A stretch of DNA of 62,952 bases, counting the filler, from Stramenopiles sp. TOSAG23-6 (lineage: Eukaryota), in assembly GCA_900128565.1 (NCBI GenBank). It is 11 parts of 11 records of this genome, joined end to end, with 100 filler letters (N's around TTAATTAATTAA, not from the genome) between each part and the next. Parts side by side here need not be neighbours in the genome. Positions count along the whole stretch, not along the records: positions 59,522 to 60,598 come from LT639779.1; 10 more parts are not named here. One strand, written 5' to 3'. The translations under genes and the position numbers were made by a program. Of this stretch, positions 1 through 60,598 are shown piece after piece. Below the pieces are notes generated by a model. That model made no database searches. It saw only the letters and a program-made list of their open reading frames with translations, and was not told the origin of the DNA. The first letter of the stretch is position 1, and each line of letters opens with the position of its first letter.

Positions 1-96
1 TATTTCAAAAAAAAAAACTTAAATTTGTTAGGTACAAAATTTTCAAAAAAAAAAACAATACATAATACATTCGAAATTAAAAAAAATAAAACATAC

Positions 97-3000
97 ATAA
101 CAGTCACCGATGGTTTTAATCTTTTCCACACCTAGGTCATCCGCAACTCGATCAAACTTTATAAACATCAAATTAAGCATTTTCACTAATTGAACAGCAG
201 AAATTGTTTGAGAAAACACAGTAAAACTGACAATATCAGCAAACAATATTGTTCCATGAGTACGCATTACTGTGCTTGACAGTGCTTCTGCACCACGTCT
301 GAGTTTCTCAAGCATCACACGGGGAATTGGAACTTTACCTAACAGACGATCAGTTTTAGCTTTTGTTTCAAGCATGAGTAATTTTTGATGGTCAAGCATC
401 CATTGTTTCAGGAAAGTTTTACGGTTGTGACGTTCAGCAGAAAAATCAGAAGATATTGAAACCATTGCAAGTGGAATCACATATTCTACAGTAATTGATA
501 TCCAATTATCATACCAATTTTCTCTACTTGAAGCCTCAGCATCTGGTAATTGAGCTTTGTACATTTGCCAATCATTATAACTTCGATGAGCATAAGCCCA
601 ATTACCAGCTGCAATCAATGCAATAGTCACCACGACTCCGTCAGCATGTGGAAGCAAAGTGAACGCATTGAGCGAAAATATCAACAACAAGACAAGGAAG
701 ATATAACTTCTTCCTGTAACTACAATCATCGCTACATGCGAAAATCCTATGAGCAGTACAAGTACGAATATGATGAACCACATAGATCTAAACCATATGT
801 ATTTTGAGAAAATATTTTTTTTTTAGTAAAAAAAAATGTTTTGTTAGGTATGGAATTTTCTACCAGAAAAATATTAAAATTAATTTTGAAAACGTACATT
901 CCACTACATTTTTCCATATTTTCAGTCACAGGGTCAATGATTGCATCTTTTTCTTCACCCTTTGAAGCATCATCAACTGTGCTCTGATTTAAACTCATTC
1001 TACTCTCCATTGAATTTCGTTTTTGTTGTAACGAAATTTCAATTTCATTATTTTCAGGAGATTCTTCATAAATTTCATCCAATCGAAGAGCTTCCCTCTG
1101 AGCTAAATGCATAACTGCAAGAAAGGCGACAATACATGGTGTAACGACAAAGCTCATAGTTCCTTCAGCAAAACGGACATCTGAACTGGACACCATGCCT
1201 ATAACTCCTTTTTTACTTGGCTCATCAATCACATCATAGTATTTATTATTCAAGTACGCTGCCATGGCAACTAACAAAATGTAGTATAATAACCAACCAG
1301 CAGGAGCACTAGAATAACATTGCTCTGCCAAGTAATCTCGGAAATGCTTCTCAATTTGATATAAATGTGCATATGCTTGATCAGCTGCACGGTCATCTGA
1401 ATGCAATGCTTCTTTTCCATTACACAATATAAACCAATTTGCTTGTACATAATAAAAAGCGGCGTGATAAGGTTGAATAAAAGCCTTATGTGCCCTAGAT
1501 ACGGCGCTTAATGATTTATCTTCTTGTTTGTATTTATCTCTAAAATAATCTTCATTAGCACGTTTATCGTCATGTTTACCTTCGCTAGAAGAAACGCTAC
1601 CTCTAACACCCAATTCTATTTCTACCTCGCCACCACCATGACGTGAGTCTCGCACTGTTTCGCCAACAGGCCTTGCTGTTGAAAACTCATCAGATGAACT
1701 ATCAGAATCTGAACCACTCGTCGCGCCTACGCAGAAGAATTTCGCAATACGCCGTTTCCAAGAAGGTGGAGATTTTGTATGTATATTTTTACTACTACCA
1801 GTATTTGAGACAGGAAGATTGTAATTGTCAAAACCATCTTGACTGTCATCAAAAAAGTTGCCATCAAATACGTCGTCAGATGATTGAGTGAAAAACTTTG
1901 AAAATCCTCGACGAACTTTATTTGATGTGGATGTAGAAGTAATTTCATTTGTAGTACATACACTTTCATCATTATTCTTTGAATCTTCATTATCATCAAC
2001 ATGAATCCATTTTGCAGAATTTCGTGAACTAATTGTATCGCCAGTACTCAATATACTCCCAGATCTGCTACCTCCAGTCGAAACGAGGAAGAATGTTTCC
2101 ATTTTACCCTTCCCCTTTACTTCAATTTCTCCACGAGATTGAACATTAAATTGTCCTTCTAATAATGCTGCTGTCTTTGGAGTTATTTGAATCCTTCCCT
2201 TTGGACAGTGACTATACATTCGACTGGCTGTATTTACTGTATCGCCAAACACATCAAAACAAAATTTACTCTTACCTATCACACCAGCAACTGCTTTCCC
2301 ACTGGCAATGCCAATCTTCCAAGAGAGGCCAGGTCGAGTCAAAATCTTTTCGACTATAGCAAGAGACATTGTAGCAACATTTTGAGCATGAAGAATTGAT
2401 GGTGATGGCATCCCGCCAGCAAACATATACACTTTTCCTATTGTCTTTATTTTTTCTACTCCATGTAACGTACACAAACGGTCAAAATCACAAAATAAAT
2501 CATTCAAAAAAGCGTGTTTTTGTCGAAAACCAGCTTCTTTACCCCCGTTTGCAGTTGTAGTCGCAGAATTAATACCAGACACATACGCAAAACCGATAGT
2601 ACAAGTTTCATATTCCATAGCAAGTTCTGTGAAAAATATTTTTTTTTTTTTTTTTTACAGAAAAAAAAAATCGTTAGGTACAAAAATTTTTTACCAAAAA
2701 AAAAACAAAATTGAAATAAATAATGAAAACGTACAACGGTATTACCTGCGTCAACTATCGCTTTCGTGATTTCAGGAGGTAATAAATTATTCAATAATAA
2801 ATCTGCAAATTCCTTTTCCTTTTGCATTGTTTGCATTTGGAGCAAAAATATTGTCAAAAATATTTTTTTTGTACAATTTGTTAGGTTATAAAAAGTCAAA
2901 AAAACAAATATTCGTTTTTTTTTTTGGTTTTTTGGTTTTTTGGTTTTTTTGGTTAGGTACAAAATTTCATAAGAAAAAAAANTAANTNAAAANTNCATTT

Positions 3001-4071
3001 TGAAAACGTACAATTTCTCTAGTCATTTTATGCCCATGTCTTTTTTTTGTGAGTACATACCATAATTGGCCAAGCATAACTACAGAGAATGTACCCTGTA
3101 TTTTGTGAAAATATTTCCAAAATTTTATTTTTTTGTTAGCCGTTATTTTAAGTATGAAATTTTGTATAATCAACAAATGAAATTGAACAACAAAACATTC
3201 TAAAAATTTGTTAGGTAGAAAATTTCGTATGTAAAAAAACAAACATACGAGGTATAAACATCGTTTTAAACGTTCTTTCCAGGTAAATTTATGAGGAGGT
3301 TCAATCCCGACAAAAAACAGAGAAGTTGATGCATATGTAATTAATATCGAAAGTGCACAAAGAGCAGCCATTTTAAAATCAAGACGGCTAAATGTATATA
3401 GTACAGCAACTAGAAAAATTAATACCGTATCGGCCAAACCTAAATAGCCACAAATCATTTCTGCAATCGTTACAAGAAGACCAAAAGAATAAAATAAAGC
3501 AAAGACCGCGCGGCGCTGAGTATGGTAACTAGAGAACCATTGGGATGATACAAACATATAGTATAGTAACCATAATAAGACCATGCAAACAAAAGCAACG
3601 GAAAAAGAAACGACAATTAAATACCCTCCATCTTCGGCCTCGCTCGCATACTTTTTTATGGCGGGGGATGCGATTACTGGAATCGCCAATATAGCCCCAA
3701 GAAGAACCCATGTATACTTTGTCTGATTCAGCCACTTTCGATGGCGATGTCCAGGCTGTTGCTTCTCTTGTTGGGTAGCAAGCCAGGCTTCCACGTCAAA
3801 GTTTTTTTAGGTGGGTAGAAAGAGCGGCATACTGTGCGCGACGGGACCTTTTTCCTGTTTTCGCTGCCAGCCAACCTCCGTCTAAGCTCACAACACCACG
3901 TCGACGACGACTACTGATACCACCACTAGTACTTCCCTGACGACGATAGCCTGCACTACTTCGGCGAGAACCATGGCGGCCTCTTGTAGAGGATAAGCTG
4001 CCGCGTACTTGACTGTGGTTCCCTAATGGTTCAAGTGGTTCAGCAACCATCGAATTAGATATGTTTTGCAT
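97..4071 (-). CDS. Membrane adenylyl cyclase with two class III catalytic domains (TM-cyclase-TM-cyclase), 3'-truncated at contig start
   Basis: VEKIKTIG, IGIASGKAVAGVIG, FDVFGDTVNTASRM in domain 1; TILFADIVSFT, VEKIKTIGDCY in domain 2; hydrophobic TM clusters. Inferred introns 3096-3248 (GT-AG), 2846-3011 (GT-TT), 2622-2734 (GT-TT), 797-897 (GT-AT), <1-96. A +1 frame break near 3796-3810. Confidence 0.85.
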
Positions 4072-4522
4072 ATAAAACACGGATAGTAATGTCTCAATAG
4101 GATTTCACAACCACTGAAATGATGTAATTATTTCAGCATTATAAAATTACACATGGCAATCAGAAAAATTGTGCTTCGATTGAGAATGTGAAGAAGAATT
4201 CTCTGATGATGATGACTGTATTGAGTACCTGTTCTCAATATACCCCTAACCCTTATATGACAGGCGCAGGGCTTAAAAAAAAACATTTTTTCGTGTTTCA
4301 AACTGTGTTGACCCCGACCACGGGTGTTTGATGTCGCCTGTCGATAAGCAAGAATAGATCTGATTCTAAATCTATAGCTTTATATAATATATAGTAATAA
4401 TATCATCAAAAAGTTTGGAGATAGTTGAATACTGCATCCATAGCGTAATTTCAAAACACTGGGGTTGCTGAGCAAAGCAGTATAATTTATTTTTTTTTGG
4501 TGTGTTGTGATTATTATTTACA

Positions 4523-6663
4523 ATGGGATTATGTGTCAGTAAGCAGCAAGACTGGCCAATAGGGACTCTCGATCATTATCAAAAAGACTCAGATTCTGTT
4601 GTAAAATTACTCTTATTGGGAGCAGGAGAATCTGGCAAGAGTACAATTTTCAAACAAATGCAAATATTACACAAGCCCGGTGCTTTTAAAGGTATTTTAT
4701 ATCATCAACAATTATACTCGTGTATTTTTTCGACCCTACATGAAGCATTTTATAATAACTCAAATATACTCTATTTTACTTATTTTTCTAAATACAGGAG
4801 CTTCCGCTAAAGCGTATGCCGATATTATTAGAGGAAATCTGCATAAAAACATGAAAGTTTTAGTCAAGGGTGCAGATAAGCTGGGTATCAAAGTGAATTC
4901 GGAAACAGCACTGAAGCAATATTTTTCAATTGATTCGAGGGGTGAATGGAGAAATGAATGGACAACAATGTTTAAGACGCTATGGAATGACTCTGGAATC
5001 CAAGAGGTGTATTCAAAACGTTCTCTACTTCAAGTGTCCGATTCTACAGCATATTATTTCTCTAATATTGATCGCATCGCATCTCCAGACTATTTGCCCA
5101 CTCAGCAGGATATTCTCCGCGCGCGGCATACGTTTTCATTATGAATTTTTTACTCATTTCGAACTAGTTTTTTTCATAGGAAATTTTGTACCTAACAAAC
5201 AAAATTAAATTATTGAAATATTTTTTTCAATGCATATAGGACTTCAGGAATTGTAGAAGAGCATTTTTTGGTCGGCGAGAATCAAAATGATTTCGCCATA
5301 TTTGATGTTGGTGGCCAGAGGAATGAACGTAGGAAATGTATGTTTTATTTTTTTCAATTTCTAATTTATTTATTTTTCATACGAAATTTTGTACCTAACA
5401 ATTTTTTTTTTTTTACGAAAAAAAAAAAAAAAATTTTTTTCACGAAACAGGGATTCATTGTTTTGATGACGTCACTGCGGTTATTTTTGTGGCTGCCTTG
5501 AGCGAATATGATGAAGTTCTCTATGAAGATCGACATCAAAACCGAATGGTTGAAGCAGTTCAACTTTTTAAAGAAATTGTAAATTGCAAATTTTTCTCTA
5601 AAACGTCAATGATGTATGTTTTATTTTTTTTCAAATTTGAATTTTGAATTTATTTTTTTTTTTATAAAAATTTTGTACCTAACAAATTTTCAAGATTTTT
5701 TTTTGAAATATTTTTTCCAAAATACATATTGTTTCTAAACAAACTTGATTTATTCCGAGAAAAAATTAAAACTGTCGATATAAAGCAACCCCTAGAACCA
5801 TGGAATAAGGACGAAGCCGAGGGAAATGTAATCGATGCTGAATTGGAAGGGACTCTTTCCCAGAGAAAAATTACACAGACTCGTCATAATGTGCGTTTTC
5901 AATAGACTTATATTTTTTATTTTTAAATACGAAATTTTNTACCNACACAAAAAAAAAAAAAAAAAAAAAAAAAAAACGTTTTTTTAATTTTTAATTTTTT
6001 TTTTCGCGCGAAATGTGGTGCCTAATTTTTTTTGTATCATTATTTTTCACAATACATGGTTTTTTTATGGATTATGACGGAGGTTGTGACGAAAAAGCTG
6101 GACTAAAATATTTTGAAAAATTATTCCGTAAACAAAACAAAAATCCAAACAGACAAATTTTCACGTATGCAACTACAGCAACGAATACAGAAAATATCAA
6201 ACATGTACGTTTTTTTTTCATACGAAATTTCATACCTAACGTTTTTTTTTTTCATCATTTCATCATTCATTTCAAATTTATTTATTTATTTTCAAAATAT
6301 TTCTTACTTTTAATTTTTTTTTTTAAGATATTGAGTTTTCTCATCATCATCATTCATTCATTTCAAATTTATTTTTTTCTTTTAATTTCAATTTGTTTTT
6401 TCAATTTCGATTTTTTTTTAATTTTTAACTAACAGATCAATCAAATTTTGAAATATCTTTTCACAGAACATGTATTTGAATCCGTACGTCAAACTTTAAC
6501 TGAAGATGATTTTAATGATATGTATGTTTTATTTTTTTAATTTCGAATTTATTTATTTTTCGTACGAAATTTTGTACCTAATAAATTTTAGTTTTTTTTT
6601 TGAAATATTTTTCCAAAATACATGGGTCTAGGAGGTACGGATAACCCCATGCACGCTTTGTAG
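4523..6663 (+). CDS. Heterotrimeric G protein alpha subunit, 8 exons
   Basis: MGLC lipidation start, [56 protein letters not shown], rebuilt across introns 4692-4797, 5128-5235, 5338-5450, 5614-5727, 5891-6057, 6205-6471, 6522-6623. Confidence 0.95.
5128..5235 (+). other. Non-canonical intron, AT...AT (G-alpha intron 2)
   Basis: ATACGTTTT start, GTACCTAAC motif, ends CAATGCAT; removal restores switch-I R-x-R-T-S-G. Confidence 0.75.
5614..5727 (+). other. Non-canonical intron, GT...AT (G-alpha intron 4)
   Basis: GTATGTTTT...GTACCTAAC...CCAAAATACAT; removal restores SMILFLNK. Confidence 0.9.
6205..6471 (+). other. Non-canonical intron, GT...AT (G-alpha intron 6), skips a CAG 5 nt upstream
   Basis: Removal restores NIKHVFESV; splicing at the CAG would frameshift. 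Confidence 0.85.
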
Positions 6664-6773
6664 GCTTTGTTTATTTGAAATTTGTATCCATTGTTTTATA
6701 AATTTGTAGTCATTGTTTTTATTTGAAATTTTTATATTTTATAAATTTGTAGTCATTCTTTTATTTGAAATTT

Positions 6774-7382
6774 TCATTTTCCTTTTTGCATTTCATAGAA
6801 CAACATATAAGCGTCGCGACCAGCCTGAAGTACTTCCGTGTCACTGACAATATATGACGTTGTATCAGAAACGAACATCCACATAAATTTATTTTCTTGT
6901 TCTGTCGAATGACATGCAGATTTTTCTTTTGGTAAAGAAATGCGGCGATATGTCATGAAATGTCCACCTAATGCAGAGCCTACGTGTACTATTACCGCAA
7001 TGAGATCATATCTTGAAGCACAACTACTCTTACAATAAAATCCACCATCGCAAAATGGGGTGATATCAAGTGTAGATGGAAAGTTGACAGATAATTCTAC
7101 TTTCTGAGAGTTATCAAATTGACACCGTTGTAGGTGAAAAACTAAAACTCGAGGAGTACATGTTTAGAAAAAAAATATTTCAAAAATTTGTTTTTTTCGT
7201 TAGCTACAAAATTTCCTAAAACAAAATAATAAATTTGAAATTAAAATAAAAACATACGAACAATCAAGAGTTGTTTTGTGGCACAACGGCGTACTGGCTT
7301 TGTTTTAGTACTTAACTTCTCATTATGCCCAGGTAACATTGAATTTTTCTCCTCATTATGCCCAGGTAACATTGAATTTTTC
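6774..7382 (-). CDS. Ubiquitin-specific protease, C-terminal part (USP30-like His box), 5'-truncated
   Basis: KQLLIVR|TPRVLVFHLQR, GGHFMTYRR, WMFVSD, AYMLFYE; GT...AT intron 7160-7257. Confidence 0.85.
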
Positions 7383-9420: not shown

Positions 9421-12400
9421 TATTACCACCACCACCACCACCACCACCACCAAAACTTAAAGTACGGTTTCTTTTTTTTTTATTTTTTTATTTTTTTTTA
9501 CATATTTATATTTTTTCAATAATGTTTTTTTTTCTAAATTTTATACCTAACCTAAAAAAATACAAGTTTAAATATACATTCAAAATATATATCTTGGAAC
9601 GTATTCGTCAAGCTCGCCAAAAGAATAAAAACAAGAACAATCCATCTAGTCCAAGAGCGCCTCCTAGAAAATTTGAAGATTTCCTTGTTAGTCCACTTAG
9701 GATTAAAAGGAATGATCCAATTAGGAGGGATGGTCCACTTAACGTTAGGCGACGTATAAACGTTAGTAGGGTTCCATCTTGTACGTTTTTATCATCCTGA
9801 AAAAAAATTTTTTTTTAAAAATTCATACGAAAAAAAATAGTACCTAACAAAAAACATTTTTAAATATATAATTCAATACTACATGTAATGGAACAAACGT
9901 CTCTTCAGAAGAAACTAAACCTGTAGCTGCGCACGTATCTAAATCTGCACCTGTTGTTGCTGCTGTTACTTCTGATAACGATAGTAGCTCTGATTCATCG
10001 GATTCCGATTCTAGCTCAGATGAAGAAGAAGAAAATAAACATGTAGCTGCGCATGTATCTACCAATGAAGAATTTACTTCTGAAAAAAAAAAAGTACGTT
10101 TTCATTTAAANTTTTTTTTTTANTTTCNTTNAAAANTTTTTTTTTTTAATTTTAATTGTACCAAATTCCATACCTAACCCTAAAAAACAATTCAAATATT
10201 TTTCAAATAAAATGACCTTGGCTATTATGAGAATGCAGCGCAAGATCTGGCAACTTCGCTGCGTGATAGTGGAGCATCGGATGAGCAGATCTTGCATGAA
10301 GTGGATATGGCAGTTGCGATAGCGATGTCGCAAGCGCAAGCTGTGCCGGACGCTGGGGGGCTCCCTAATGATTCGAATAGTTGTTTCATGAATGCTGTCA
10401 TGCAATTATTGTCGAGAACTAGAGAGCTTCGATCTGCCTATTTTGATAGACCATATCATCAAGGCGATCAAGACAATGAAGTGGTAAAACTATTAGTAAA
10501 AGAAGTTTCTGGGTACCTAAATGGTACAAATGAATCATGTTTAACACATATTCATGAAGTTATGAAACAACTTCAATTTATACTGTTTAAACAAGTTGGT
10601 GATCAAGAAGATGCTTTTGAGACGATTATGGAATTGAAAAAAAAATTGAGTATACCTATGAATGTTAATTTTGGCGTTATTCACCAACAGAAGACAACAG
10701 TAACTGTAATGAAAGTACTCAAAGATGTATGTTTTTTTTTTTCAATTTTGATTTTTTTTTCGTACGAAATTCTGTACCTAACAATTTTTTTTGAAATATT
10801 TTTCCAAAATACATGAAGACAAAAATGGCGCATTTGAATATAAATATGAAAATTACCCAAACGAATTATTGAAAGAACATTTTCTAGATATTCCAGTAGA
10901 AAAGATTCAACCAATTAATCTTGATGATCCTAATTCTAAATTGTATGAGTATGTAATTTTAGAAGGCGAAAAAATAAAATTTACATGGACTATATACAGG
11001 AAAGGCACTATCGAAAATTGTATTGATCCTCTAAATATTCCTTTGAATGACGACACGCCACAAAATTTTTCTTTTGAAAAATTTGTAAAAGATTCTGCAA
11101 AAGATAATCCCCGCAAATTATTAAGCGGTTTCGGATCTTTATTATCAGATGAAAATTGCGAAGAACTCAGATTTGATGATATATGTCTTAGAGAGATACG
11201 CATAGCTCAGCTGATACAAGATCTAGACAAGCTTAGTTTACAACTAGAAACTTTGTATAATCAATTTGAACCTTTGAATGGGAATGTATGTTTTAATTTT
11301 TTTTCAATTTTGAATTTTTTTTTCGTACGAAATTTTGTACCTAACAATTTTTTTTGAAATATTTTTCCAAAATACATATGAATTATTTGAAGAAAAGAAA
11401 ATGTTTTTTTTTGTGGAAAAAAGAAACCTTTGGTGGAAAAAACAACATATCTTTGGATGAACATTTGAATAATGTTCTAGAAGAAGTTGAAAAATTCATG
11501 ACAAGTGAAGCATTATATAATTCGGCGAATTTGGAGGGTTTGCAAACACAACGTGAGAATGTGGAAAAAAACGTTGATGAACTTTTAATAAAAATACATC
11601 GATTTTTTAGTATCACAGCTAATCTGAAAACAACAAAAGATGATGTTGTTAGACCGTTGGACTATTATATTGAAGATGGAGGAAGTTCGTTCGAATGTAG
11701 TTCATTGGGTATTTTAATCACTGTGGGACGTTTTAAAACAAAAACGAATGATGCTGGAGATTTCGTAGAAAAAAAAATACATACAAAGACAAAATTTGAT
11801 GATGTGCAAATATCATTAACATTTGATCAAAGTGGTATAAAAACACATGAACTTACAGCTTTTATTTCACATATCGGAAGTACTTCATCTGGTGGTCACT
11901 ATGTTGAGTATCAGAGAAAAGAAGCTAACGAAAATCCAACTGATGATTTTTACGCAAGATGTTATGATGATTCACGGGTAACTGAAGTGTCAAAGGAAGA
12001 GTTTTTAAAAAAAGCAGCAGAAGGGTATATTTTTTATTTACGCCCAATTCAGATTAACAATGTAAGTGGTGGCTATTTTTTTTTTACTTTTCATTTGCAA
12101 ATTTCAAATTTATTTTTCTAGTAAAAATTGTATTTCTAACAAAAAAAATATTTTTAATATTTTGCATCACTATATGAAGAAAAAACAAAATCAGATATTG
12201 ACCGTCCTGTACAAAACTCAAAGCTGAAAGCACTCAACCTTGTTATCAGAAAGGCACTTCCCGCTGCAGCTGCTGACACAAATGGAGCTAATGCAGGTGG
12301 TCATGTTGCTGCAGTCGCTGATACTGATAATGTTGCTATTGCTGTCGGAGATGCTGCCGGTGCTGCCGCTGACGGGGATGAAGAAAAAACAAAATCTGAT

Positions 12401-14648
12401 ATTGAGAAATTTGCGAATCGTCGTGATGCTCTTAGTGATGATATTAATGAATCGAAAGATAATGTATGTTTTGCTTGGTTGTTTTAAATTTTTCTAATAT
12501 TTCGTGATTTTTTTTTTCATACGAAATATTGTACCTAACAAAAAAAAACAATATTGAAATATATGTCTTTACAATAAATCAGATAAATATCGATGCTAAA
12601 CGTTTAAGTCGTCTTAAGACAAGAAAAACCCGAGAAAAACAAAGTCGTCCTAAGAAAAAAAAAACCCAAGAAAAACAAAGTCGTCCTAAGAAAAAAAAAC
12701 CCGAGAAAAACAAAGTCGTCGTAAGAAAAAAAAAACCCAAGAAAAACAAAGTCGTCGTAAGAAAAAAAAAAACCCAAGAAAAACACATTCGTCAGAAAGA
12801 AAAAAAGAAAATAAAAGAAGCATCAGTACCAGCAACACCAGCACCAGTGTAAGTGAATGACCGTTCATTTCAAATTTATAATTTACAATTTTTTTTTATA
12901 CAAAATTTTGTACCTAATAGAAAACCAAATTAATATTCTAACAAAATAACAGTATAAAAAATTCATCGTCATCGTCATCGTCCGCTTTTGAAAGTCCTTT
13001 GCCATTGCCCTCTTCAAAATCTTTCCATGTTGAAACTTCATCTTCTGATACTAATTATGATGAGACAAAGAAAACAAAGAAGAAAAAAACAAAAAAAAAA
13101 CCTGAAAACAAAATTGAAGATGAAGACCCTAGCTCTACGTAAGTGATCATTATTCATTCCAAATTTACAATTTTATTTTTTTTTTCATACGAAATTTTGT
13201 ACCTAACAAAAAAAAAATATATTTTAACAAAAACAACAGTGAAAATAGTACTGATACTTCCTCTTCTTCTTCTGGAACTTCGTCTGATGATAACCTTGTG
13301 GTTGAAGCAAATGGCGAAAAATATGTTTTGAATGACGATTTCAAGACAAATTTTACAGAAGACAGAGATGAGATAACTATCAAAACAGGAAATCTTAAAA
13401 ATAATTGGAAGAATTTCACGTATTACTACAATGTAGAATATTGTGAAAAGCGAAATAAATATAGATCAGTTTTTAGGAAAAATACGCATTTCGACAAATC
13501 CATAGACGCTGCTAATTTAAGTGATAAAATTGCAAGAGTTTATAATAGAAAAAACTCCAACAACAGTAACAACTCTGCCCGAAAAATTNACGATNGNAAA
13601 AAAAAANTTNAATNAAAGACCAAGAAAAAATAACCCTTATACTGGATGCACATACAATGAAGGAACTGGTACATATTCTTATAGAATACAATCTAGAGGA
13701 GAAACACCCATAACTAGACATGGTTTTGAAACTATTCAGGCTGCTGCCAAAGCTAGGGATAAGAAGGTAAAACGTCTTCAAACTAATAAACCAATTGGTA
13801 GTGTGAGACAAACCTTCAACTCCAAAGGTAATTTAATTAAATGCACACCTGCAACAACAGAAGAAAAAAGGTATGTTTCATTATGAATTTTTTACGATTT
13901 TTTTATACAACATTTTGAACCTAACAAATTACCCTTTTGACATATTTTTGTACATTGTGGAGTGCATACACGCACTGTTAGGCGAGTTAAGGCAGCACAA
14001 AAGTCTATAGATGATATAAATAAAGAGACTAATAGAAAAAAACAAAAGAAAAACAACAACAAAAAAAAAAAAAGTAACGCAATAAAAAAGGAAAACAAAA
14101 GAAGAAAAAAATATAGTTTTCGAGAACACCAAAAATGTCCGGTTCGAAAGCCTATAAATGAACGTGTTGATCTTCAAGCTGCGGTATGTCATGATAAGTG
14201 TTATAAAACTGTGACAAAATATTGTAGAGATATATGTCAATTGTGTCATGGTCATAAAGAATGGTACAAATATGACCATAATGACATTGACAATCAATTA
14301 GTGATGGAACACTACATAGAGCTGCGTCACTATTTTCCTATCCTTGAATATAGTGACAAAGCTTGTTGGGATGCTTTGTATTATAAAGGAATAGTAATAA
14401 TGTCCTCTAAAATGAATAGTTGGAAGCTAAACAAGTGTCGACCCAGACATCTTGTTCCCAGAAAAATCTTCATAAGGATGAGTCTAAAACAAAAAGCTTT
14501 GGAGTACTTTCGATTAAAGTACTATTTTGATAATAGAAATAAAGAGGGATTTGAAGTTCAAAACTATGAAGATGATTATGATAAAGACGGAAACATGAAG
14601 GATGAGTGTAAAGAGAAAATTAAGTCATTAATTAAGCATTTGGAATAA
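8236..14648 (+). CDS. Large ~15-exon gene: low-complexity N-terminus, UIM-like motif, USP catalytic domain, Lys-rich repeats, AP2-like domain(s)
   Basis: Cys box GLPNDSNSCFMNAVMQLL, QEDAFE, His box HIGSTSSGGHYV, YDDSRV; EQILHEVDMAVAIAMS; YTGCTY...YSYRI...GFETIQAAAKARD. Exons chain in frame through family introns (e.g. 8539-8633, 10727-10814, 11286-11377). Frames near 12650-12780, 13590-13615 and the last intron are uncertain. Confidence 0.7.
8742..9640 (+). repeat. Tandem duplication of a two-intron exon module (8742-9164 and 9205-9640)
   Basis: Near-identical intron and exon sequence in both copies, e.g. AATATAGATTAAAAATACAGGAGAAAAAAAC and CATTCAAAATATATATCTTGGAACG. Confidence 0.9.
12622..12790 (+). 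repeat. ~33-bp coding tandem repeat, about 5 copies
   Basis: Repeated AAAACCC(A/G)AGAAAAACAAAGTCGTC(C/G)TAAG. Confidence 0.85.
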
Positions 14649-29895: not shown

Positions 29896-30352
29896 CATGA
29901 TGAATTTCAAATTTATTTTTACAAAAAAAAAAAAATCATAATTTTTTTTCAAATCCAACAAAAATAATAATATAATAATATATTGAATATAATTGATCAA
30001 AGCAAGTTCAAATTGTGCATTACTAATTTACTATTCTTATTCCCTATACATACTATATACAATATATTAGCATCGTTGTCCGGAACCGGGTACCTGTATT
30101 TGACCAATTTCTCAAAATCTCAAAACCTCAAAAAAATAGGTCAAAATTACAAAATTAGGGTTAGGGTTGATAAAAACAACACGAAATATATGGAAAAAAC
30201 ATGAAAAAAATGAAAAACTCGAGAGATCTCACAAACTCTACCTCGGTCTCTTTCTCTACTAAAAACAACAACAACACACACACACACAATATTACACCAC
30301 GGGGGCGCAAGCAACAATCATTTCTTCATATTGCTAATTTGTGTGTGTGAAC

Positions 30353-33031
30353 ATGTCAAATACTTTGTTAGAACGATGCCGTAGAACATTACAGGATAGA
30401 GATGAGGGGTGTAAGCTTTTATCTGAGGAATTGATGGAAGTACCAGAGACTCAAAAAGATAAAGTGAAGCAGGAGCTTCGTGTCGCTGCGTACATTTCGT
30501 TTATTCAGAAACAGTGTAGTGATCTATTATCTCTTTTCAAGGACAAAGATGGATTCCGACGAGCTGAAATCAAAACCATGTCCAAGGGTGATATTATAGA
30601 ACAATTTTATGCTCGTTATGGTGTCAATTCTTGTTATCATAAGAAACATCCAAGTATAGCGCCTGAGCAGTCTCTCCAAGATCGTCTGAACGTACTCGTT
30701 AACAAGTCTTTCATGAAGTTTTCAGGTGAAGAAAAGTATGGAAAATACTTGGATTTACATCAATTCTATACTCGTTTCTTAAATATGTCGGAGTTTGACC
30801 AAACAAAGGATTTTTTTCTATCAAAAAGTGACAAGGGGAGAAAAACGAAAAAGCATAAATCGTCAAACCCAACTTCTGAAGAAACTAAGCCAACTTCTGA
30901 ACAAACAAACTTGAATAAAAAAGACACCACACTTCAAGATGATGAAAATCAGAAAGATAGTCATGATGATTCAAATGTACAGAATAGAAAAGAAATTTCA
31001 TCAACAATATCCAAATCAAAAACAACAAAAACAACAAAAACAATTTCGTATCGTCAATTTCTCGATTTATTTTATATATTTAATCATGTAAATGTGTGCT
31101 ATCGTACGGGACATACTGCTACGACACGAAATCTTGTATATGCACAATATATTCATGATTTACGATATTATTTGGAACATTTTATTCAACGTGCTCAACC
31201 TGTCCTTGGTAATGATGCGAAAGATGCAATCAAACAATGGGAAAATGAATTTTCAAAAAAATGGGAAAAACAGGAAAATAACCCTAACCCTAACCCGTCT
31301 CTTAACGTTGAAATGTTACAAAAAAAAGATGGATTTATAAATGTAAACAAAATATCTACATATGATGAATTATCAGCAATGGAGACAAAAGCGATAAGAG
31401 CAGCTTTGTCCGTATATGGATTAAAAAAAGGAGGTACTCACAAACAGTGTGTACGTTTTTCAGTATGAATTTCATTTTTTTTTTCATAGTAAATTTTGTA
31501 CCTAACAATTTCAAAAAAAAAATTTGAAATTTTTTTCATAAAATTTTTTTTTCATAGTAAATTTTGTACCTAACAAAAAAAAAGAAATTTGAAATTTTTT
31601 TTCATAAAAATTTTTTTCATAAAATTTTTTTTTCATAAGAAATTTTGTANCTNACNAAAAAAAAAANTTTNAAATNTTTTTTCACAAATACATGTTGATC
31701 GATTTTGGTCCATTCGAAATTTGCATTACAGTCAATGGCCTATTGATATTTTTCAAACTTCACCAAATGCTACTACAAATGCATCAAAGTCTAATTCAAG
31801 GAAGCGAAAACGAAGACGTAAAAATAACCCTAACCCTAATACACAAAATATCAAAAATACAAAAAATGGTACAAAAAATGGTACAAAAAATACAAAAAAT
31901 GTAAAAAATGTAAAAAATTCAGCTTTTGAAATTGCACAAAATGAATATATTATTCATTTACTTGCAACAGAAATGCATCAAGAAAAACTTCGAGCAACAC
32001 GAAATCAAGTAGAGAAAAAGTTAACATTAACTTATAATGTAGGTTTTCATTTGTAGTACTTGAATTTTTTTTTTTTTTCAAAAATTTTTTTTTTTCAAAA
32101 ATTGTTTTTTTTCAAAAATTTTTTCATAGTAAATTTTGTACCTAACAATTTTTTTTCAAAATTTTTTCAAAATATTTTTGTACACTATAGGAATTGATAT
32201 CTCGACATGAAGATGAAGAGGATGCTGAACGTTTAGCAAATAAACTTGTTCAATCCGATGATGAAGACGATGAAATCATTTATAATCCTCTGAATCTTCC
32301 TTTGGGATGGGATGGAAAACCAATTCCTTTTTGGTTATATGTATGGTTTCATCATGAATTTATGAATTTATGAATTTAATTTTTTTTTTTTTTTTTTTTT
32401 TTCGTACGAAATTCCGTAATTAACAAAAACAAAATGTCAAATATTTTTTTACAATATATAAATTACATGGTTTGGGTATTGAATATAAATGTGAAATTTG
32501 TGGAAATGAAAGTTATTGGGGTCGAAGGGCTTTTGATAGACACTTTCAAGAATGGAAACATTCTCATGGTATGTACGTTTTCAATTTATCAATTTAAAAA
32601 AAAAAAATTCAAAATTTTTTTCAAAATTTTTTTTCAAATTTTTTTTCAAAATGTTTTTTTTTAAATGTATACTAACAAAAGAAACAACTAAAAAATATTT
32701 CCCACAAGACATGCGATGTCTAGGTATACCAAATACAAAACATTTTCATGATATTACAGTTATTGAAGATGCTGTGGCCCTTCATCAAAAATTATCTGCC
32801 TCTTTGGCTAAAGATTCATATAGCAAAACTATTGAATATGTATGTTTTATTTTTTTTTTCTTTACCAAAAAAAAAAAAAATCGAATTTTTTTTTTCATAG
32901 TAAATTTTGTACCTAACATTTTTTTTCAAAATTTTTTTTTGAAATATTTTTCCAAAATACATGAAGATTCAGAAGGAAATGTATTGGATCAAAAAACATA
33001 TCGCGATTTGGAACGACAAGGGTTACTCTAA
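30353..33031 (+). CDS. SF3A3: Splicing factor 3A subunit 3 (SF3a60/Prp9), 6 exons
   Basis: [75 protein letters not shown]; introns 31451-31693, 32039-32190, 32341-32459, 32573-32712, 32840-32962. Confidence 0.95.
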
Positions 33032-34321: not shown

Positions 34322-36958
34322 TACAAAGAATACATTCAATTGAAATGGTACAACCTATAATTAAGGAATTCAAACAAAATTCTTACTCTCATTTAAAGAT
34401 TTCGTGTTTTTTTCCAATTCCTGTACAAATGATGGTCAGTTTTATTTATTTTTTTTTATTTTTTAGTTGAATTTTTTTTTATTTTTTATTTGAAATTGAA
34501 ATTAAAATTAAAATTGAATTTTTTTTTTGGTTTCATACGAAATTTTGTACCAAACAATTTTTTTAAAAAATTTTTTTTTTGGTTTCATACGAAATTTTGT
34601 ACCAAACAATTTTTTTTTAAAAAAATTTTTTTTTTTGAAATATTTTTCCAATTTACATGATCAAGTCATTGCTTTGGAATGGCAAATAGGATCGCCATCA
34701 AGATCAATTTTTAAAAAAGTTCAACAATTAATTGGTAATTTAAGTGGTACATTTAATAATACAATGTCAATTGCTGATCCACGAAAAGTATTTGAAATAA
34801 CTACACCTTTTGAAAATGACCCTAACCCTAGCCCTAACCCTAGATCAGATTCTTCTGTTTTGGGAAAATCTCCAATAGGAAAATCACCGATACAATCAAC
34901 CCTAACCCTAAACAATAATTTTTCAATTGAATTGAATAAAGAAAGAATGCTTAAGTCTATATACAATACAGCATTATCTAAAGGATCATATTTTACAACT
35001 ACTAACCCTAACCCTAAGAATAATACTAGTGAAATATTAGTCGTATTACGTGTAGGTTGAATTTGATTTAAATTTTTTTTTTTTGAAATATTTTGAAAAA
35101 AAAAAAATTTTTTTGAAATTTTGAAAATTTTTTTTTTTTTNTTTTTTTTTTTTTTTTTTTACTACTATATAAACATTTTCTTTTCAATCTCATACTTTAC
35201 TACTCAAATATACCTAAAATGTAATGTTTCGAAATATGATTTCATACTGTATGTAAGAGCTAGAATTATTATACAGAAAATAAATGATACTCAAGTAACA
35301 AATATTGGTACAAATTCTAACCCTACCCCTAAAAAACAGAAAAAAAAAAGGGATGCAAAATGGACAAGTAGCACAAAACACTCTAAAAAATCAAAACGTA
35401 AATCAAAAAAAAGAAAAAGTATAAATAACCCTAACCCTAGCATGGGTAGTCCTGAAGATAGAGTACAATCACCTTGGTCATTATGGAGTCATTCATTACA
35501 TGTACTTTTTTAAAAAAATTTAAATTTTTTTATTTTTAAAATTTTTTTAAATTTTTTTAATTTTTTTAAATTTAAAAAAATTTTTTTTTTACATTTTTTT
35601 TTTTACATTTCATTTTTTTTCTTAATTATTTTATATACATATATTTATACACATTACAGATGGTAGATCCTAAACACAGCAAGATGTCTCTTACATCTAA
35701 TAGTATTCATCACACACAACAAAATAAAACAAAAATAAATACCAAAAATAATAATAATACTCCAAATACTCCAAATACTAATAATGAAACAATTTCGGAT
35801 ATTTCGGATATTTCGGATATAATAGTAACTGAAACAAATGCTATTTGTGCAATTTCTGTTATGAATGATAGTTATATAGCAACAGCAACACAAGGTTCAA
35901 ATACTATAAATATTTGGAAAAATAATGAATTTCAATATCAATTGAATGGTCATAAAAATGATGTTTTATGCTTACATTATATATTTGAAAATAAAACATT
36001 ATTAAGTGGATCATGGGACAAAACTGTCCGAGTATGGAGTATGTCAAACCCTAACCCTACTAGTCCACAAAATCAAAAAAATCTAAAACATCAAAAACAT
36101 CTAAACCATCTAAAATATACATCTCATATTATAATGATAGCACATAAACATAAAATTAGTTGTATTACATCAATTGAAAATGGAAAAGTTATAATAAGTG
36201 CAGAAAAAGAAATAAAACTTTGGCAATGGATACCCGGGACCCTTTATAAATCTGATCACACTAATGAAATCATATCCATAAAAAAATGTTTGATTACATT
36301 AACACAACATAATGGAATTGTTGAATCAATCTCTCCCATCCCAAACTCTTTAACAAATTCAGCAACTATGTATCTTTTATTTTTTTTTTTGTATGAAATT
36401 TTTTTTTTTTTTGTATGAAATTTTGTACCTAACAATTTTTTCTAAATTTTTTTTTTTTTTGAAATATTTTTCCAAAATACATTGAATTTATTTCAGGTTC
36501 CCGGGATAAAACTGTCAAAATTTGGGGGTACCCAAAAGGTAACATTGAAGCAACACAGTGTTTGTATACGATATTGGGACATACAAATTGGATAAAGTCT
36601 GTTTGTATGTATGTTATGTTTAACAAAAAAAAAAAAAAAAAAAAAATTATAGACAATTTTTTTGTATTGTAGTTGAAAAATATTTTTTTTTTTTTTTTCA
36701 TAGTAAATTTTATACCTAACAAAACAAAAAACAAAAATTTCAAAAATATTTTTCACACTATATTGTGTTCCCATCTGTGTTTGTATCTGCAGGATGTGAC
36801 AAAACTGTTCGTGTTTATAGTAAATGTAAACCAAAAATTAAAAATTTGAATTTTATTATAGGAAATTTGTATGAAAAAACGACTGGTGAATATCCACATA
36901 AATGGGTGATTTATGTGTGTGCCAACCCTAACCCTAAGCGTAATAATACAGATGATAT
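33517..36958 (+). CDS. Degenerate Rab-like domain fused to WD40 repeats, 3'-truncated
   Basis: STFGIELKYKDVQINGTQYRLQLWTTA, AVFFVY; GHKNDV...LLSGSWDKTVRVW, FISGSRDKTVKIW, GHTNWIKSV, VSAGCDKTVRVY. Some exon joins are uncertain. Confidence 0.6.
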
Positions 36959-38968: not shown

Positions 38969-40600
38969 TTATTCTTTTTTTTCTACAATTTCAAGTTGAT
39001 ACCCTGGAAATGAAGGACTTTCGTATCCTCCATTCCACTGTACATGCACTGTTCCATCCGAATTATTGGATACAACTACACCAATATTTGGACATGTACT
39101 ATTTTCACCAATACTTGGAGGTGCAATATTTTCGATTTTATATTCGTCTCGCAAGGAACATTTTTTACCGACAAGAGATTCGCCTTCCAAACCACATATT
39201 GTGAAAAAATATTTTTAGAAAAAAAAATCATTAGGTACGAAATTTCGTACGAAAAAATAAATTCGAAATTGGTAAAACATAAAACAAACACGTTCCCAGA
39301 GTAAAGACAAATATCCAAATATAGGAACGTCTATACCTCCAATCTTTTTTACTCTGAAAGATCTCGTCGAATTCACAGATGGATGATTACCTAAACACCA
39401 AGTAACAGCATCTGCAAACCCAGGAGGGTTATCTATCATTAAATTATGCCCACTATCTTCAACTCTAGCAATCATAATATTTTTTATTGTTTTTTTTTGA
39501 GCTAGCTTCTTAGACTCACGAACGGTGGAACATTGGTGCCTCAATTGCAAAGCAGAATTTATATCCATCCAGTCTCGAGTTCCATATACAAAAGATATTG
39601 TATTATTTGCAAAAGGTAACTTTAACTTAGGTATGCGATCAATTAGAGGTCTGAAGGCGTAAGCACCTGGTAATAATAGTGTTGAATGACATGAACCACC
39701 TACACTGTAAAGTATTGAAATATATCAAGAAGATTTCATATGAATAAAGATTGTTTTTTTCTAAATGAATTAGTATAATTTTGTTATATATATATATATA
39801 TATATATATTACGAAGGCTCTCCATTACACCAATTGTATAACCAGTAATTCTGAAGTAATTTGTGAGGTGTCCAAGAGGATTGCTTAAATCGTGCTTGAG
39901 TATATTTACCTAGCCAATAGTTCTTGAAAGGCAAATCAAATGGACCATAGCCCCTTGACCAGAGACTTCGAACAGAACGGATAAGCATATTTCGCATAGA
40001 CCAAGTTCTGCTTGTTTGAAAAATCTTCAGATTTTCAGGTGCACGTGGTAGACCAACAGGTGATATTAATATCAAATCTTTTACATTTTGTCCGTGTTTT
40101 TCTGCATAGGCTACTGCAATGTACCCACCGATACTATGACCAACAATTGAAATATGCTCAACATTGAGAGATTTACGCAAGCCTTCAACCCCTGATACAA
40201 AGAAGTTCTCAATTTGATCAATATCTGCACTTGATCCATACCCAGAATCGTACTTCTCCCTAGTGGAGAGACCACAGCCTAAACTATCCACACTATATAC
40301 ATCGCACTTTAGTTTGTGAGAAATCAGTGGTGCTGAAGTTGCGTATATTCCAGTACCACTACCATAACCATGTAAAAGAAATACAGGTACATTGCCAGCT
40401 TGTACGTTTGAGCTACGATAACGTACAGTATGCATTTTCTGCTCACTACCTTTTTCTGACACCTGAATTTCAAAATCTACTGGTTCTACACTTACTGACA
40501 CATTATCTTCCCGACGTAATCGTATCCACTGTCTCGCCCATGAAAGGCCCCAACTAACAAGATCTTGTTCAGCATCGCGAGCATTTTTTTCATTCGACAT
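38969..40600 (-). CDS. Alpha/beta hydrolase, ABHD4/5 (CGI-58)-like
   Basis: LLHGYGSG, GHSIGG, LILISPVG, HNLMIDNP (HX4D); introns 39705-39812 (GT-AG) and 39196-39291 (GT-AT). Confidence 0.88.
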
Positions 40601-43247: not shown

Positions 43248-44537
43248 ATGGAACATTTGTCGACGGAGACTAAAGATATAGTGGAACCATGGGTAAATTG
43301 TTTTATTCCATCGGAGGATAAACTTCTTCCAATTGTACTGTCAGTGCCTCATGGAGGAAGTTTAAAACCAAACTCTGTATTAGACAGAACTTCTGGCTGT
43401 CAACATCCAGACGAGGGAACAACGGAGCTTTCAAGATCAATATTTATGGCTCTATGTAAGAACAATAAGCGGAATTTTCAACCATGTCTTGTGCAACATT
43501 GTCTTCACCGATCAAAAATTGACCCCAACAGAGACTTGGATTTTGCTGTTGACGTAAAGTCTTCTTCTGTCGTAGAGTCTTGGCATCTATACCATGCAAA
43601 TATTAGACGAGCTCTTCTTTTATCAGTTAAAATTCATGGTTTTGCTTGCTTAGTTGATGTTCATGGGCAAGATCATAGAAATGATACGACTGAACTAGGC
43701 TATGGCTTGACGAGTTTCGAGTTGGTTCTTTCTGACGAAAACCTTCAAAATCGCTGGGTTACTAACTCTAACTCTACACCTCATCACTTTAACTCTGAAG
43801 GTCATGTTGTGCAATCAAGGAATGGAATGTGTTTTTCACTACATAGTCTTTTACACAATGGAATTTCAGTACCCGAAATTGTTCGTGGAGAATTTTCCTT
43901 GGGAGCTTTACTAGAGAAAAATGGATTTAAGTGTACACCAAGTATGTTGTATTTTTTTTAATTTCAAAGTTTTTTTTCATACGAAATGTTGTACCTAACA
44001 AAAAAAATCAAAACATCAAAAAAAAATATTTTTTTACACTACATGCCCACGTCTGCCGAAACCTGTATCACTATCAGATGTAATTGTTTCATTAACACAT
44101 GAACTTGATAATGAGATTATCGACGGTGGCAATTTAGAAACCCTTTTAACTCGTCATGGTTTTGCCCCTAGTTTGAATTTTGCGAAACTTTTACGGAATA
44201 ATATTATGAATGACATTAGTAGTGTTGAATCATTCTCAAATAGTAATATAGTTGATACTATATCCCACGGAAATAATTCGTTAGGTACGAAAGTGGGTAC
44301 AAAACCAAAACATTCAATTACGAATTTGACAAATACCACTCCTCCGAGTGTATCCCCATTTGACTATTTCAAAGGCATTTACTTCTGGGGTGGATATACA
44401 TTACAAGCCTATACTTGTCGCAACGCTATACCAGGAAATGTTGGCCCTCTTACTGAGTCAGATTGGACTCTAAAAAACCCTAACCTTAACCCCAATCAAT
44501 TACAATCTGTTCATACTACAAGAAATAGTTTTGAGAG

Positions 44538-46298: not shown

Positions 46299-46706
46299 AA
46301 CACATGTGAAAAAAAAAAAAAAAAAAACAGGATTTTTCGTACGAAATTTCGTACCTAACGAAAAAAAAAATCGACGTCTAGTCTATCCTTTTTTTTTTGT
46401 GATTATTTGATAAATAAACAACACTCTAGAGAATGTAGAGACATTATTTTATACTATGTATATATATACATGATACACAAGGAAAATAGCAACATGAAAA
46501 GAATGTATATCAACATGAAAAAAATATATATTTTATTACACTTCATTTAAAAGTACAACAAGGATAATCAACCCTAACCCTAGTACAAAGACATTCATTG
46601 TAGGGCTAGTGGCCTCTTTTTGAGTACTCATTTTGTGTAATGAGTTCATTGTGTTACTTTATATGTTTTAGATATAATAGATTTTTTCTATGTTACATTC
46701 TCCAAA

Positions 46707-59521: not shown

Positions 59522-59576
59522 TTTTTTTTTTTTGAAACTAAAAAAAAAAAATTTGAAATATTTTTCCAAAATACAT

Positions 59577-60436
59577 GAACCTTTGAATGGTGGACATCCT
59601 GTGCTAAAATGGTACAAAGTTCAGCCTGCGAAGAGAGGCCAGAAACCAAAAGGAATGATGAAATTGGCTGATGTTACGATACAACGAGCGGATGAATTTA
59701 ATCGAGATGAAGAAGTTCATGTACGTTGTTATGAGTACTATGACAATATTTTTTTTTTTTTTTTTCAAACTTCAAATTTTTTTTCATACGAAATTTTGTA
59801 CCTAACCAAAAAAAAATCCAAGAAAAATTAATTTTTTTTTTAAATATTTTTGTACAATTTAGGATGGGAATACAAAGAAGCATATCACTTCAAAATGTTT
59901 TCGAATTGTATCACCTGATAAATCAAAATGTTATTTAATAAATATACACCCATTAATGATCCCAAGTCAAAATGCATATAGGTTTTAGCTTTTTTCAAAT
60001 TCGATTTTTTTTTTATAGTAAATTTCGTACCTAACAATTTTTTTTAGATTTTTTTTGAAATATTTTTCCAAAATGCATTACTTGAAAGAGATGATTGGAT
60101 GCATAAAATCGAAGAAGCTGCTGCACAATATGAAACTGACGTACGTTTTTTTTTTTTTGGTTTCATACGAAATTTTGTACCTAAGCCAAAAAGCCAAAAA
60201 AAAAAAAATTAAATCTAAGAAAAAAAAATATTTTAGAAAAAAATATTTTCACACAACATATGATCATGATGTAAAAATTGCACAAAAAAACTCAACTCAA
60301 AAGAGCACAGAACGTCTATCCCAACGTCTAGATATCGTTGTAGGGTTAGGGTTACAAGATCGACTTCGTCCAAGAGAGAAACAAATTATATGGCAAAGTC
60401 GACACGTATTTTTTCATACGAAATTTTGTACCTAAC

Positions 60437-60474
<38 letters not shown>

Positions 60475-60598
60475 TTAAAAAAAAAAATTTTTAGCTAATT
60501 GTGTATACTATATATACTATTTATATCTTGACAACAAAGCGTTTGGTTACTCAGTCCGCTGCATTACCTAAATTTATTGAGTCCGTTGATTGGATTAA
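59577..60598 (+). CDS. Internal fragment of a PI3K-like protein: PH domain followed by the start of the PIK helical domain
   Basis: LKWYK...KPKGMMKL...FRIVS...ERDDWMHKIEEA; LRPREKQIIWQSRH...AALPKFIESVDW; AT...AT intron 59978-60078. Confidence 0.7.

Follow-up and report, generated by a model that had tools for sequence, protein, structure and literature searches.

Does a spliceosome that accepts introns ending in AT also remove introns that begin with A, and do the two ends of such introns change together? The question is raised by two introns in a 62,952-nucleotide stretch of DNA from Stramenopiles sp. TOSAG23-6 (GenBank assembly GCA_900128565.1), the whole of which is called the window here. 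Copy 1 (positions 5128 to 5235, + strand) interrupts a G-alpha gene, and copy 2 (59978 to 60078, + strand) interrupts a reading frame with a weak match to a PH domain; both begin with A and end in TGCAT. We found that both belong to a family of short, introner-like introns, most of which run from GT to AT, and that both carry G at position -4 (counted back from the last intron base) together with A at position +1. The window is a chain of separate contigs, eight of ~7.3 kb and three of 1077 bases, joined by N44-TTAATTAATTAA-N44 linkers across which distances have no meaning. Its G+C content is ~31%, and the two introns sit on separate contigs (copy 1 on 1-7382, copy 2 on the 1077 bases of 59522-60598).

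An intron family that ends in AT

The family core, CATACGAAATTTTGTACCTAAC, has 44 matches at three or fewer mismatches in 63 kb versus 0.00 expected, and a looser core pattern marks 53 places, tandem cores inside one intron among them. Family members usually take the form GTAYGTTTT...TACCTAAC...GAAATATTTTTCCAAAATACAT, and their alignment shows, from 5' to 3', GTAYGTTTT, a TTTCGAA box, a T-run, CRTACGAAATTTTGTACCTAAC, a second T-run, GAAATA and TTTTTCCAAAATACAT. We curated the 32 introns in which both ends could be placed by alignment. Left out were copies cut by contig ends (cores at 42, 22235, 37248 and 52104, and the copy at 59522), second cores of tandem introns, and diverged or unresolved copies (2967, 3225, 7569, 8051, 9060, 9536, 20350, 23785, 27439, 46344 and 60421); two GTAAGT...AACAG copies, 12849-12952 and 13139-13239, both in frame, were left out of the end-position tally only. 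Median length among the 32 is 113 nucleotides (nt). Positions +2 and +6 are T in all of them, +3 is A in 29 and +5 is G in 29, and 31 have a branch-like ACCTAA-type motif, whose median distance from the 3' end is 45 nt (range 31-233). By their ends the 32 divide into 27 GT...AT introns, 3 GT...AG introns and the 2 that start with A.

Because it ends in AT and not AG, the family is a larger oddity than the two A-starting copies within it. When the cuts are placed at the aligned GT and AT, the best frame upstream runs on into the best frame downstream in 21 of the 27 GT...AT copies (one third expected; binomial p = 3e-6), and 11 of the 13 frame-unambiguous copies are in frame. The six frame misses are not contradictions: the copy at 60141 is in frame if its end is moved by two bases to 60261, where the sequence again is AT; those at 54137 and 50034 have, by reading, a 13-codon exon or a near stop downstream; and those at 15242, 22547 and 32840 have two open downstream frames each. 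An in-frame GT-AG alternative within +/-12 nt is absent in 15 of the 25 GT...AT copies examined. Four of the seven G-alpha introns have an AT acceptor, and removal of the GT...AT introns at 5614-5727, 6205-6471 and 6522-6623 (all + strand) gives the junctions KTSM/ILFLNK, ENIKH/VFESV and FNDM/GLGG, each collinear with homologues. The last three bases of the 27 copies are CAT (20), AAT (4) or TAT (3), and position -4 is A in every one. Three AG-ending relatives end at the same aligned column (AACAG versus AACAT, CTATAG versus CTATAT), so the last base can be G or T; in the G-alpha contig, an intron at 5338-5450 (+) ends AACAG where its relatives end AACAT, with G or T accepted as the last base.

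Moving the cut by -2 to give an AT-AC register was rejected as a family rule, since 10 of the 27 copies have no AT at the exon end, and those without it that are nevertheless in frame as GT...AT include 8539, 10094, 31451, 43942, 23343, 39291 and 27048. The exon does end in AT in the other 17 copies, compared to a share of 9.7% for AT among window dinucleotides, and the next exon begins with G in 17 of the 27; these counts indicate that an AT(G) direct repeat, or a target preference, is real. The length of the direct repeat (L+R) is 0 to 5 in most copies, and rises to 8 nt at 6205-6471 (AACAT/GTA at both junctions) and 10 nt at copy 2, which suggests insertion at sites like the abutted ends of the element. 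The pre-insertion target at 6205-6471 would resemble those abutted ends, and ATACAT/GTAT is itself a palindrome; the repeat there is a hint that homology to the end junction guided the insertion. Given the inverted ends and the AT repeat, we also considered excision at the DNA level, like that of ciliate internal eliminated sequences. This was rejected, as all 32 curated copies are sense-oriented and carry the spliceosomal signals GUAYGU, UACCUAAC and a U-tract.

Two family members that begin with A

Copy 1 is 108 nt long, runs ATACGTTTT...CAATGCAT (wider ends ATACGTTTTCAT...TTTCAATGCAT), and has A at +1, G at -4 and the branch-like motif 41 nt from its 3' end. The upstream exon ends ...CGCGCGGC at 5127 and the next begins ATAGGACTTCAGG. 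Cut at the family ends, the exons join in frame with 174 and 87 open codons on the two sides, and the G-alpha profile runs from position 167, which ends the upstream exon, to position 169, the R that opens the downstream exon. The preliminary description had said that removal of this intron restores G-alpha switch I, and this agrees with what we found. The residue at the position of that R is usually K or R in G-alpha proteins, and a related G-alpha has P there (RVRLPTSGI). All other exons of the gene are intact, and they align collinearly with homologues.

The A at +1 of copy 1 is present in a second public assembly, one not necessarily independent of the window's source. A Logan-derived protein, P0129, is 99% identical to the G-alpha exon (one residue differs) and reads ...RARHTFSL into the intron; its His codon requires A as its second base, which means that A(+1) cannot be put down to an error in this assembly alone.

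Copy 2 is a family intron of 101 nt, ATAGGTTTT...AAAATGCAT, that aligns end to end with the family, again with A at +1 and G at -4. Its conserved branch-site-like core, GTACCTAAC (60027-60035, +), is 45 nt from the 3' end. The intron ends CCAAAATGCAT, the next exon begins TACTTGAAAGAGATGATTGG, and the flanking exons translate to ...IPSQNA and LERDDWMHKIEEAAAQYETD; joining T to TA gives L and a spliced product LLERDDWMHKIEEAAAQYETD (its first L by reading). The frame here was established by reading, as the automatic best-frame test failed because the downstream intron frame is open for longer. The sequence LLERDDW, which removal of the intron was said to restore as a PH-domain helix, is as described and in frame, and the PH helix is only weakly recognised: the PH_13 match starts at the E of LLERDDW and has an E-value of 0.041, below the cut-off. 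The gene had also been labelled PI3K, a name for which that match and the next exon, which falls in no family, give no grounds. Long open frames stand on both sides of each locus.

Both introns end in the pentamer TGCAT, as no other family member does; a third TGCAT (12163-12167) is internal to an intron whose end reads CACTATAT. The preliminary description also gave both a GCAT at the 5' junction, and the motif is present in each, at different registers (GC/AT in copy 1, GCAT/AT in copy 2). At copy 2 the reported 10-nt direct repeat is exact: CAAAATGCAT occurs at the exon end (59968-59977, +; L = 10) and again at the intron end (60069-60078, +), where 9 of its 10 bases agree with the family 3' consensus CAAAATACAT. 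Sliding along it gives 11 equivalent registers, none of them GT-AG, GC-AG or AT-AC, and the only register that ends in C is AT-GC, with G and not A before the C. Copy 1 slides only 0 to +3, over an ATA repeat and not over GCAT, through the registers AT-AT, TA-TA, AC-AT and CG-TA. The same 11 bases, ATGCAT/ATAGG, stand at the 3' junction of copy 1 and at the 5' junction of copy 2 (5236-5240 and 59973-59982, +), with the roles of exon and intron exchanged.

Coupled changes at the first base and at position -4

Comparing first bases with 3'-terminal positions across the 32 curated introns, as had been proposed for these two introns, we found G at -4 in both A-starting copies and in none of the other 30 (Fisher p = 0.002). 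Position -4 was chosen after seeing the data, so a fair value, corrected for roughly 10 end positions, is nearer 0.02. The two copies fall in different subfamilies: copy 1, of type GTACGTTTTCAT.ATGAA...CACTACAT, is nearest to 43942-44044 (80% identity), copy 2, of type GTATGTTTTA...CCAAAATACAT, is nearest to 11286-11377 (86%), and they are 73% identical to each other. The shared changes were thus not simply inherited, and the same two substitutions, at +1 and -4, arose twice. The coupling of +1 and -4 is real in this small sample. Copy 2 also has a G at +4 that is rare in the family (2 of 32).

Proposed splicing as A...U introns at the family's own sites

Our preferred reading, held tentatively and at a little under an even chance, is that both copies are spliced as AT-AT introns at the family sites, through a relaxed check of the last base and a compensating 3'-site change at -4. 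The two elements would be members of an introner-like family of spliceosomal introns, ~100 nt long, in which G(+1) has changed to A. Normal members of the family run GUAYGU...UACCUAAC...U-tract...A-C-A-U; their 3' site would be A plus U (or G) in a set position, the base at -4 being always A. The same major-type spliceosome would remove the two copies at the family-homologous bonds, as A...U introns, and positions +2 to +6 (UAYGU or UAGGU) would keep the U1 and U6 contacts. Since the machinery would already join G(+1) introns that end in U, its check of first against last base may be relaxed enough for A(+1) with U(-1). The recurrent A-to-G change at -4 would compensate in 3'-site recognition, and the repeat at 59968 and 60069 would reflect insertion at, or later conversion with, exon sequence resembling the 3' end of the element.

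Several features speak for cuts at these bonds. The 5' sites are otherwise consensus, and the competing GT donors within the two copies, GTTTTC and GTTTTA, lack A at +3 and G at +5, each found in 29 of 32 family introns. AT-AT splicing also suits the two proteins slightly better, as it places R at G-alpha position 169 and keeps the E at which the PH_13 match starts. Other points weigh on the opposite side. The A-starting copies number only two, and the position tested was chosen from the data. In each copy, the GT at +5/+6 also opens an in-frame GT...AG route, and finding this in both would have a chance of ~0.04 were the route without importance. Mutation of a 3'-site base that is otherwise invariant suggests damage sooner than repair, and no contact between +1 and -4 is known. 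Major spliceosomes that have been studied well, moreover, do not complete the second step on an intron with A at +1 if its last base is anything but C (Parker and Siliciano, 1993, as cited in PMC13326754).

A bolder form of the AT-AT reading, which we think unlikely, is that the major spliceosome of this stramenopile-like lineage reads the 3' site as A(-4)-N-A-K, with U as good as G in last place, and that the purine swap from G(+1)/A(-4) to A(+1)/G(-4) reveals a direct tertiary contact between +1 and -4 in the second step. If true, it would move the first-last rule three bases inward, by way of natural introner variants.

Alternative explanations

A shift to cryptic sites ranks a close second to AT-AT splicing; we consider it quite possible, if not the likeliest account. 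The G(+1)-to-A change would have killed the donor, and splicing would have shifted to a second GT, present at +5/+6 in all family copies, and, on the 3' side, to the next AG in frame, leaving no AT-AT introns at all; the A-to-G change at -4 would have disabled the old ACAT acceptor, use of which would otherwise cause a frameshift. For copy 1 this predicts a GT...AG intron of the same length at 5132-5239 (+), GTTTTC...GCATATAG, with its AG at 5238-5239 (a (4,4) alternative) and the product RARHT/TSGIVEE. For copy 2 it predicts a 107-nt GT...AG intron at 59982-60088 (+), with its AG at 60087-60088, 10 nt past the family end (a (4,10) alternative), and the product ...SQNAY/RDDW.... In-frame alternatives thus exist in both copies, whereas only 5 of 25 ordinary copies have one from the +4 donor, a rate at which two out of two is unlikely unless the alternative matters. 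A shift would also explain why -4, A in all 27 GT...AT copies, is altered exactly in the copies without G(+1). The rare G at +4 of copy 2 makes AG/GT around its cryptic donor, the copy 1 acceptor ATATAG/G is good, and the length of the copy 1 protein is unchanged. Beside the poor donors described above, the acceptor of copy 2, GAAAG/, is poor, and its product loses two residues, including the E of the PH helix match; G-alpha would receive T where R suits the K/R consensus better. Knocking out ACAT could, furthermore, have been achieved at -1, -2 or -4 with any base, yet the same A-to-G change is seen twice.

It is rather improbable that the association has no function, being a small-sample coincidence or a by-product of local sequence exchange, with splicing proceeding regardless of -4. 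The small number of A-starting copies and the corrected p value of ~0.02 are consistent with this, as is the position of the copy 2 G(-4) within the 10-nt identity to the exon end, because conversion could explain that G without reference to +1. This bears on the suggestion in the preliminary description that the termini derive from the target site, which fits the repeat of copy 2 and does not fit copy 1. Copy 1 has no repeat (L = 0) and yet has the same G, so target derivation cannot explain its G at -4; the otherwise invariant -4 and the different subfamilies of the two copies likewise argue against an association without function.

The other cause that had been put forward for the co-variation was base pairing between the 5' and 3' ends. 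In its strong form, which we regard as very unlikely, pairing of ATGCAT with ATGCAT would itself set the cuts, as in the nonconventional introns of euglenids or the introners of Amoebophrya, and the two changes would preserve that pairing. ATGCAT is self-complementary, ordinary copies can pair exon-AT plus GUAU with AUACAU, and copy 2 has the strongest end duplex of 30 copies (-8.4 kcal/mol, z = -2.5). In that terminal inverted-repeat register, however, the partner of +1 is -3 and that of +2 is -4; the two changes create A x C and U.G there and so weaken the helix in place of preserving it. The new pairings (ATGCAT with ATGCAT, 6 bp, in copy 2; GCAT with ATGC, 4 bp, in copy 1) lie 4 and 2 nt out of register, and the duplex of copy 1 reaches -4.4 kcal/mol (z = -0.8). 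Across the 30 copies energies range from -1.1 to -8.4 kcal/mol, mostly within 1.5 standard deviations of shuffles, with z <= -2 in only 4, and the inverted repeat of ATGTAT(G)TTTT and AAAATACAT is confined to the main subfamily. Pairing is thus neither a requirement of the family nor conserved between subfamilies, and we rejected the hairpin-type nonconventional introns of euglenids and the introner elements of Amoebophrya as models, the more so as all 32 copies carry spliceosomal signals in the sense direction. Neither pairing nor target derivation explains both copies.

That neither intron is productively spliced, whether as decaying introns in pseudogenes or non-functional alleles or through assembly errors, is highly improbable: the only near-identical public product found, P0129, does read into the intron, but the rest of the G-alpha exons are undamaged and collinear with homologues, A(+1) recurs in the second assembly with a 99% identical protein, and long open frames flank both loci.

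Comparison with known introns

The closest known system is the non-canonical introns of the major spliceosome in the tunicate Fritillaria. U2-type introns that start with A and end in AT or AC are reported as the commonest classes in F. borealis, introns of F. pellucida and F. borealis end most often in 3'-AT with AG/AC and AG/AT leading the non-canonical classes, YAY triplets stand both directly before the 5' site and at the intron's last three positions, and these introns are linked to introner transposons with weak splice sites (PMC13326754). Fritillaria-type introns are further marked by cDNA-proven junctions and by U2AF subunits that are duplicated and divergent. In common with them, the family described here has AT ends (27 of 27 copies) and often AT before the 5' site (17 of 27), and the two A-starting copies end in CAT. 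A terminal YAY is matched by CAT in both A-starting copies and in 23 of the 27 GT...AT copies; before the 5' site, copy 2 has CAT and copy 1 has GGC. In contrast to Fritillaria, the host is not a tunicate, the donor is a strong GUAYGU where the main classes there start with AG, A-starting copies are rare (2 of 32), and the junctions are predicted from genomic sequence.

Like the introners of Micromonas, Aureococcus, dinoflagellates and Amoebophrya, the family consists of near-identical short introns in unrelated genes, with short junction repeats and weak terminal inverted repeats. Amoebophrya introners have direct and inverted repeats and many non-canonical ends (PMC7789003), and those of Aureococcus have canonical splice motifs and constant repeats (as cited in PMC7789003). 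Unlike in Aureococcus, the element here brings a non-AG acceptor, and its repeat is mostly AT (+G), reaching 8 and 10 nt in two copies. No transposase or autonomous partner was seen in the window.

The same terminal dinucleotide pairs occur among U12-type introns: a survey counted 12 AT-AT and 7 GT-AT introns, judged AT-AN and GT-AT competent for U12-type splicing, and took one conserved GT-AT pair to be a putative U2-type intron (PMC1557818). We rejected a U12 type for the family, in which an RTATCCTT-like 5' start ([AG]TATCC) is found in 0 of 32 members and the donor is GUAYGU, not RUAUCCUU. The U12 branch site, TCCTTAAC, lies ~10-26 nt from the 3' end, and the branch-like UACCUAAC here, at a median of 45 nt, is beyond this short spacing. 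The copies are also not U2-type AT-AC introns, because no frame-keeping register of either ends in AC. The coupling itself recalls the first-last rule (Parker and Siliciano, 1993), in that a first-base G-to-A change is accompanied by a change at the 3' end; in that rule, unlike here, the partner is the last base (G to C), whereas these copies retain a final T and change at -4.

A description of this intron family was not found in the literature searched, nor was one of non-canonical introns in marine stramenopile (MAST) genomes, supplements and subscription journals being outside that search. In the available text of PMC5778133 the word 'intron' appears twice, in the methods only, and it is absent from that of PMC12614181 and PMC8163842.

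Searches for transcripts, products and further copies

Searching with the G-alpha exon gave 5 matches among longer proteins (best 41% identity) and 5 among proteins of near length, one of which was 99% identical but unspliced. The 38-residue PH exon, compared with 1.84 billion representatives, matched one irrelevant repeat protein only. A run search returned 7 runs with small shares (0.05-0.11), 6 of them recorded as RNA, and four were mapped on 59522-60598. Cover fell only on the repeated intron parts of that contig; the exons flanking copy 2 had depth 0 in 4 of 4 runs, and the joint 59977/60079 was not listed in any of the four, which with exon depth 0 is uninformative on splicing. One of the runs labelled as RNA contained 636 contigs with a 90-100% match to the intron-family stretches of 59522-60598, the exons being almost uncovered; these could be retained introns, genomic DNA in the library, or relatives with the same family. 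A metagenome scan with the 16-nt core sequence found at least 118 loci, of which 5 passed a loose filter and none of the 5 had family context by eye. No family copy was found among viral contigs, and prokaryote genomes gave one chance match, in a Bacteroidales metagenome-assembled genome.

Other features of the family and the window

The core contains a 16-nt palindrome, GTACGAAATTTCGTAC, directly before CTAAC, for example at 39230-39251 (-), 46338-46359 (+) and 60020-60035 (+). It is perfect in some copies and mostly reads GTACGAAATTTTGTAC, which would place a G.U pair in the RNA; it could form a hairpin beside the branch site, or be a DNA-level recognition site of a mobile element. Two or three tandem core modules are found at 31451-31693 (+), 24169-23969 (-), 27541-27399 (-) and 34500-34660 (+), the ends still being ACAT or AAAT. 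The family intron at 27048-26900 (-) is followed directly, with no exon between, by the donor-like GTAAGTGATATAT... (26900-26880), and the two may be abutting introns or one longer composite intron. Several copies apparently skip an AG 10-20 nt past CTAAC; the one in 5614-5727 is in frame and would add 11 residues to a conserved G-alpha strand, and one may ask whether the true branch point is instead in the GAAATA box, closer to the 3' end.

The contig of copy 2 holds three further family members on the + strand: the 3' part of one at the contig start (59522-59576), ending ...GAAATATTTTTCCAAAATACAT and followed by GAACC; a neighbour with an AG end, GTACGTTGT...ACAATTTAG (59721-59862); and GTACGTTTT...CACAACATAT (60141-60261), whose AT end at 60261 is in frame with the open stretch 60262-60405, an end at 60259 being out of frame. 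Long open frames throughout the window encode ordinary eukaryotic proteins, including G-alpha, adenylate/guanylate cyclase, ArfGAP, ATG9, an SF3A3-like protein, a KH-domain protein, class I fumarase and others. The gene for the SF3A3-like splicing factor (30338-31468 and from 31694 onward, +) is itself split by a three-core GT...AT family intron (31451-31693). Among named relatives, the closest to the fumarase exon is a EukProt coding sequence labelled GSMAST32 (91% identity); the other fumarase matches, stramenopile and other protist sequences among them, are at 64-75% identity. On this basis we treat the host as a MAST-3-like stramenopile. An Rfam scan of the window gave no match, the U11, U12, U4atac and U6atac snRNAs of the minor spliceosome included.

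Implications

If copies 1 and 2 are cut at the family bonds, they would be natural A...U introns of a major-type spliceosome outside tunicates, and the pairing of +1 with -4 would be a new constraint on the choice of 3' site. Even otherwise, this is a protist that routinely uses an AT acceptor (27 of 32 curated family introns), and gene finders built on GT-AG will break the majority of genes in genomes of this kind. Single-cell assemblies of MAST-3 have yielded ~2,700-3,300 genes in 19-21 Mb (PMC5778133), and we would guess that these low counts have the same cause, AT acceptors missed by gene finders. As its members end in G or T and start with G or A, the family offers a compact natural series on how introner insertions create splice sites.

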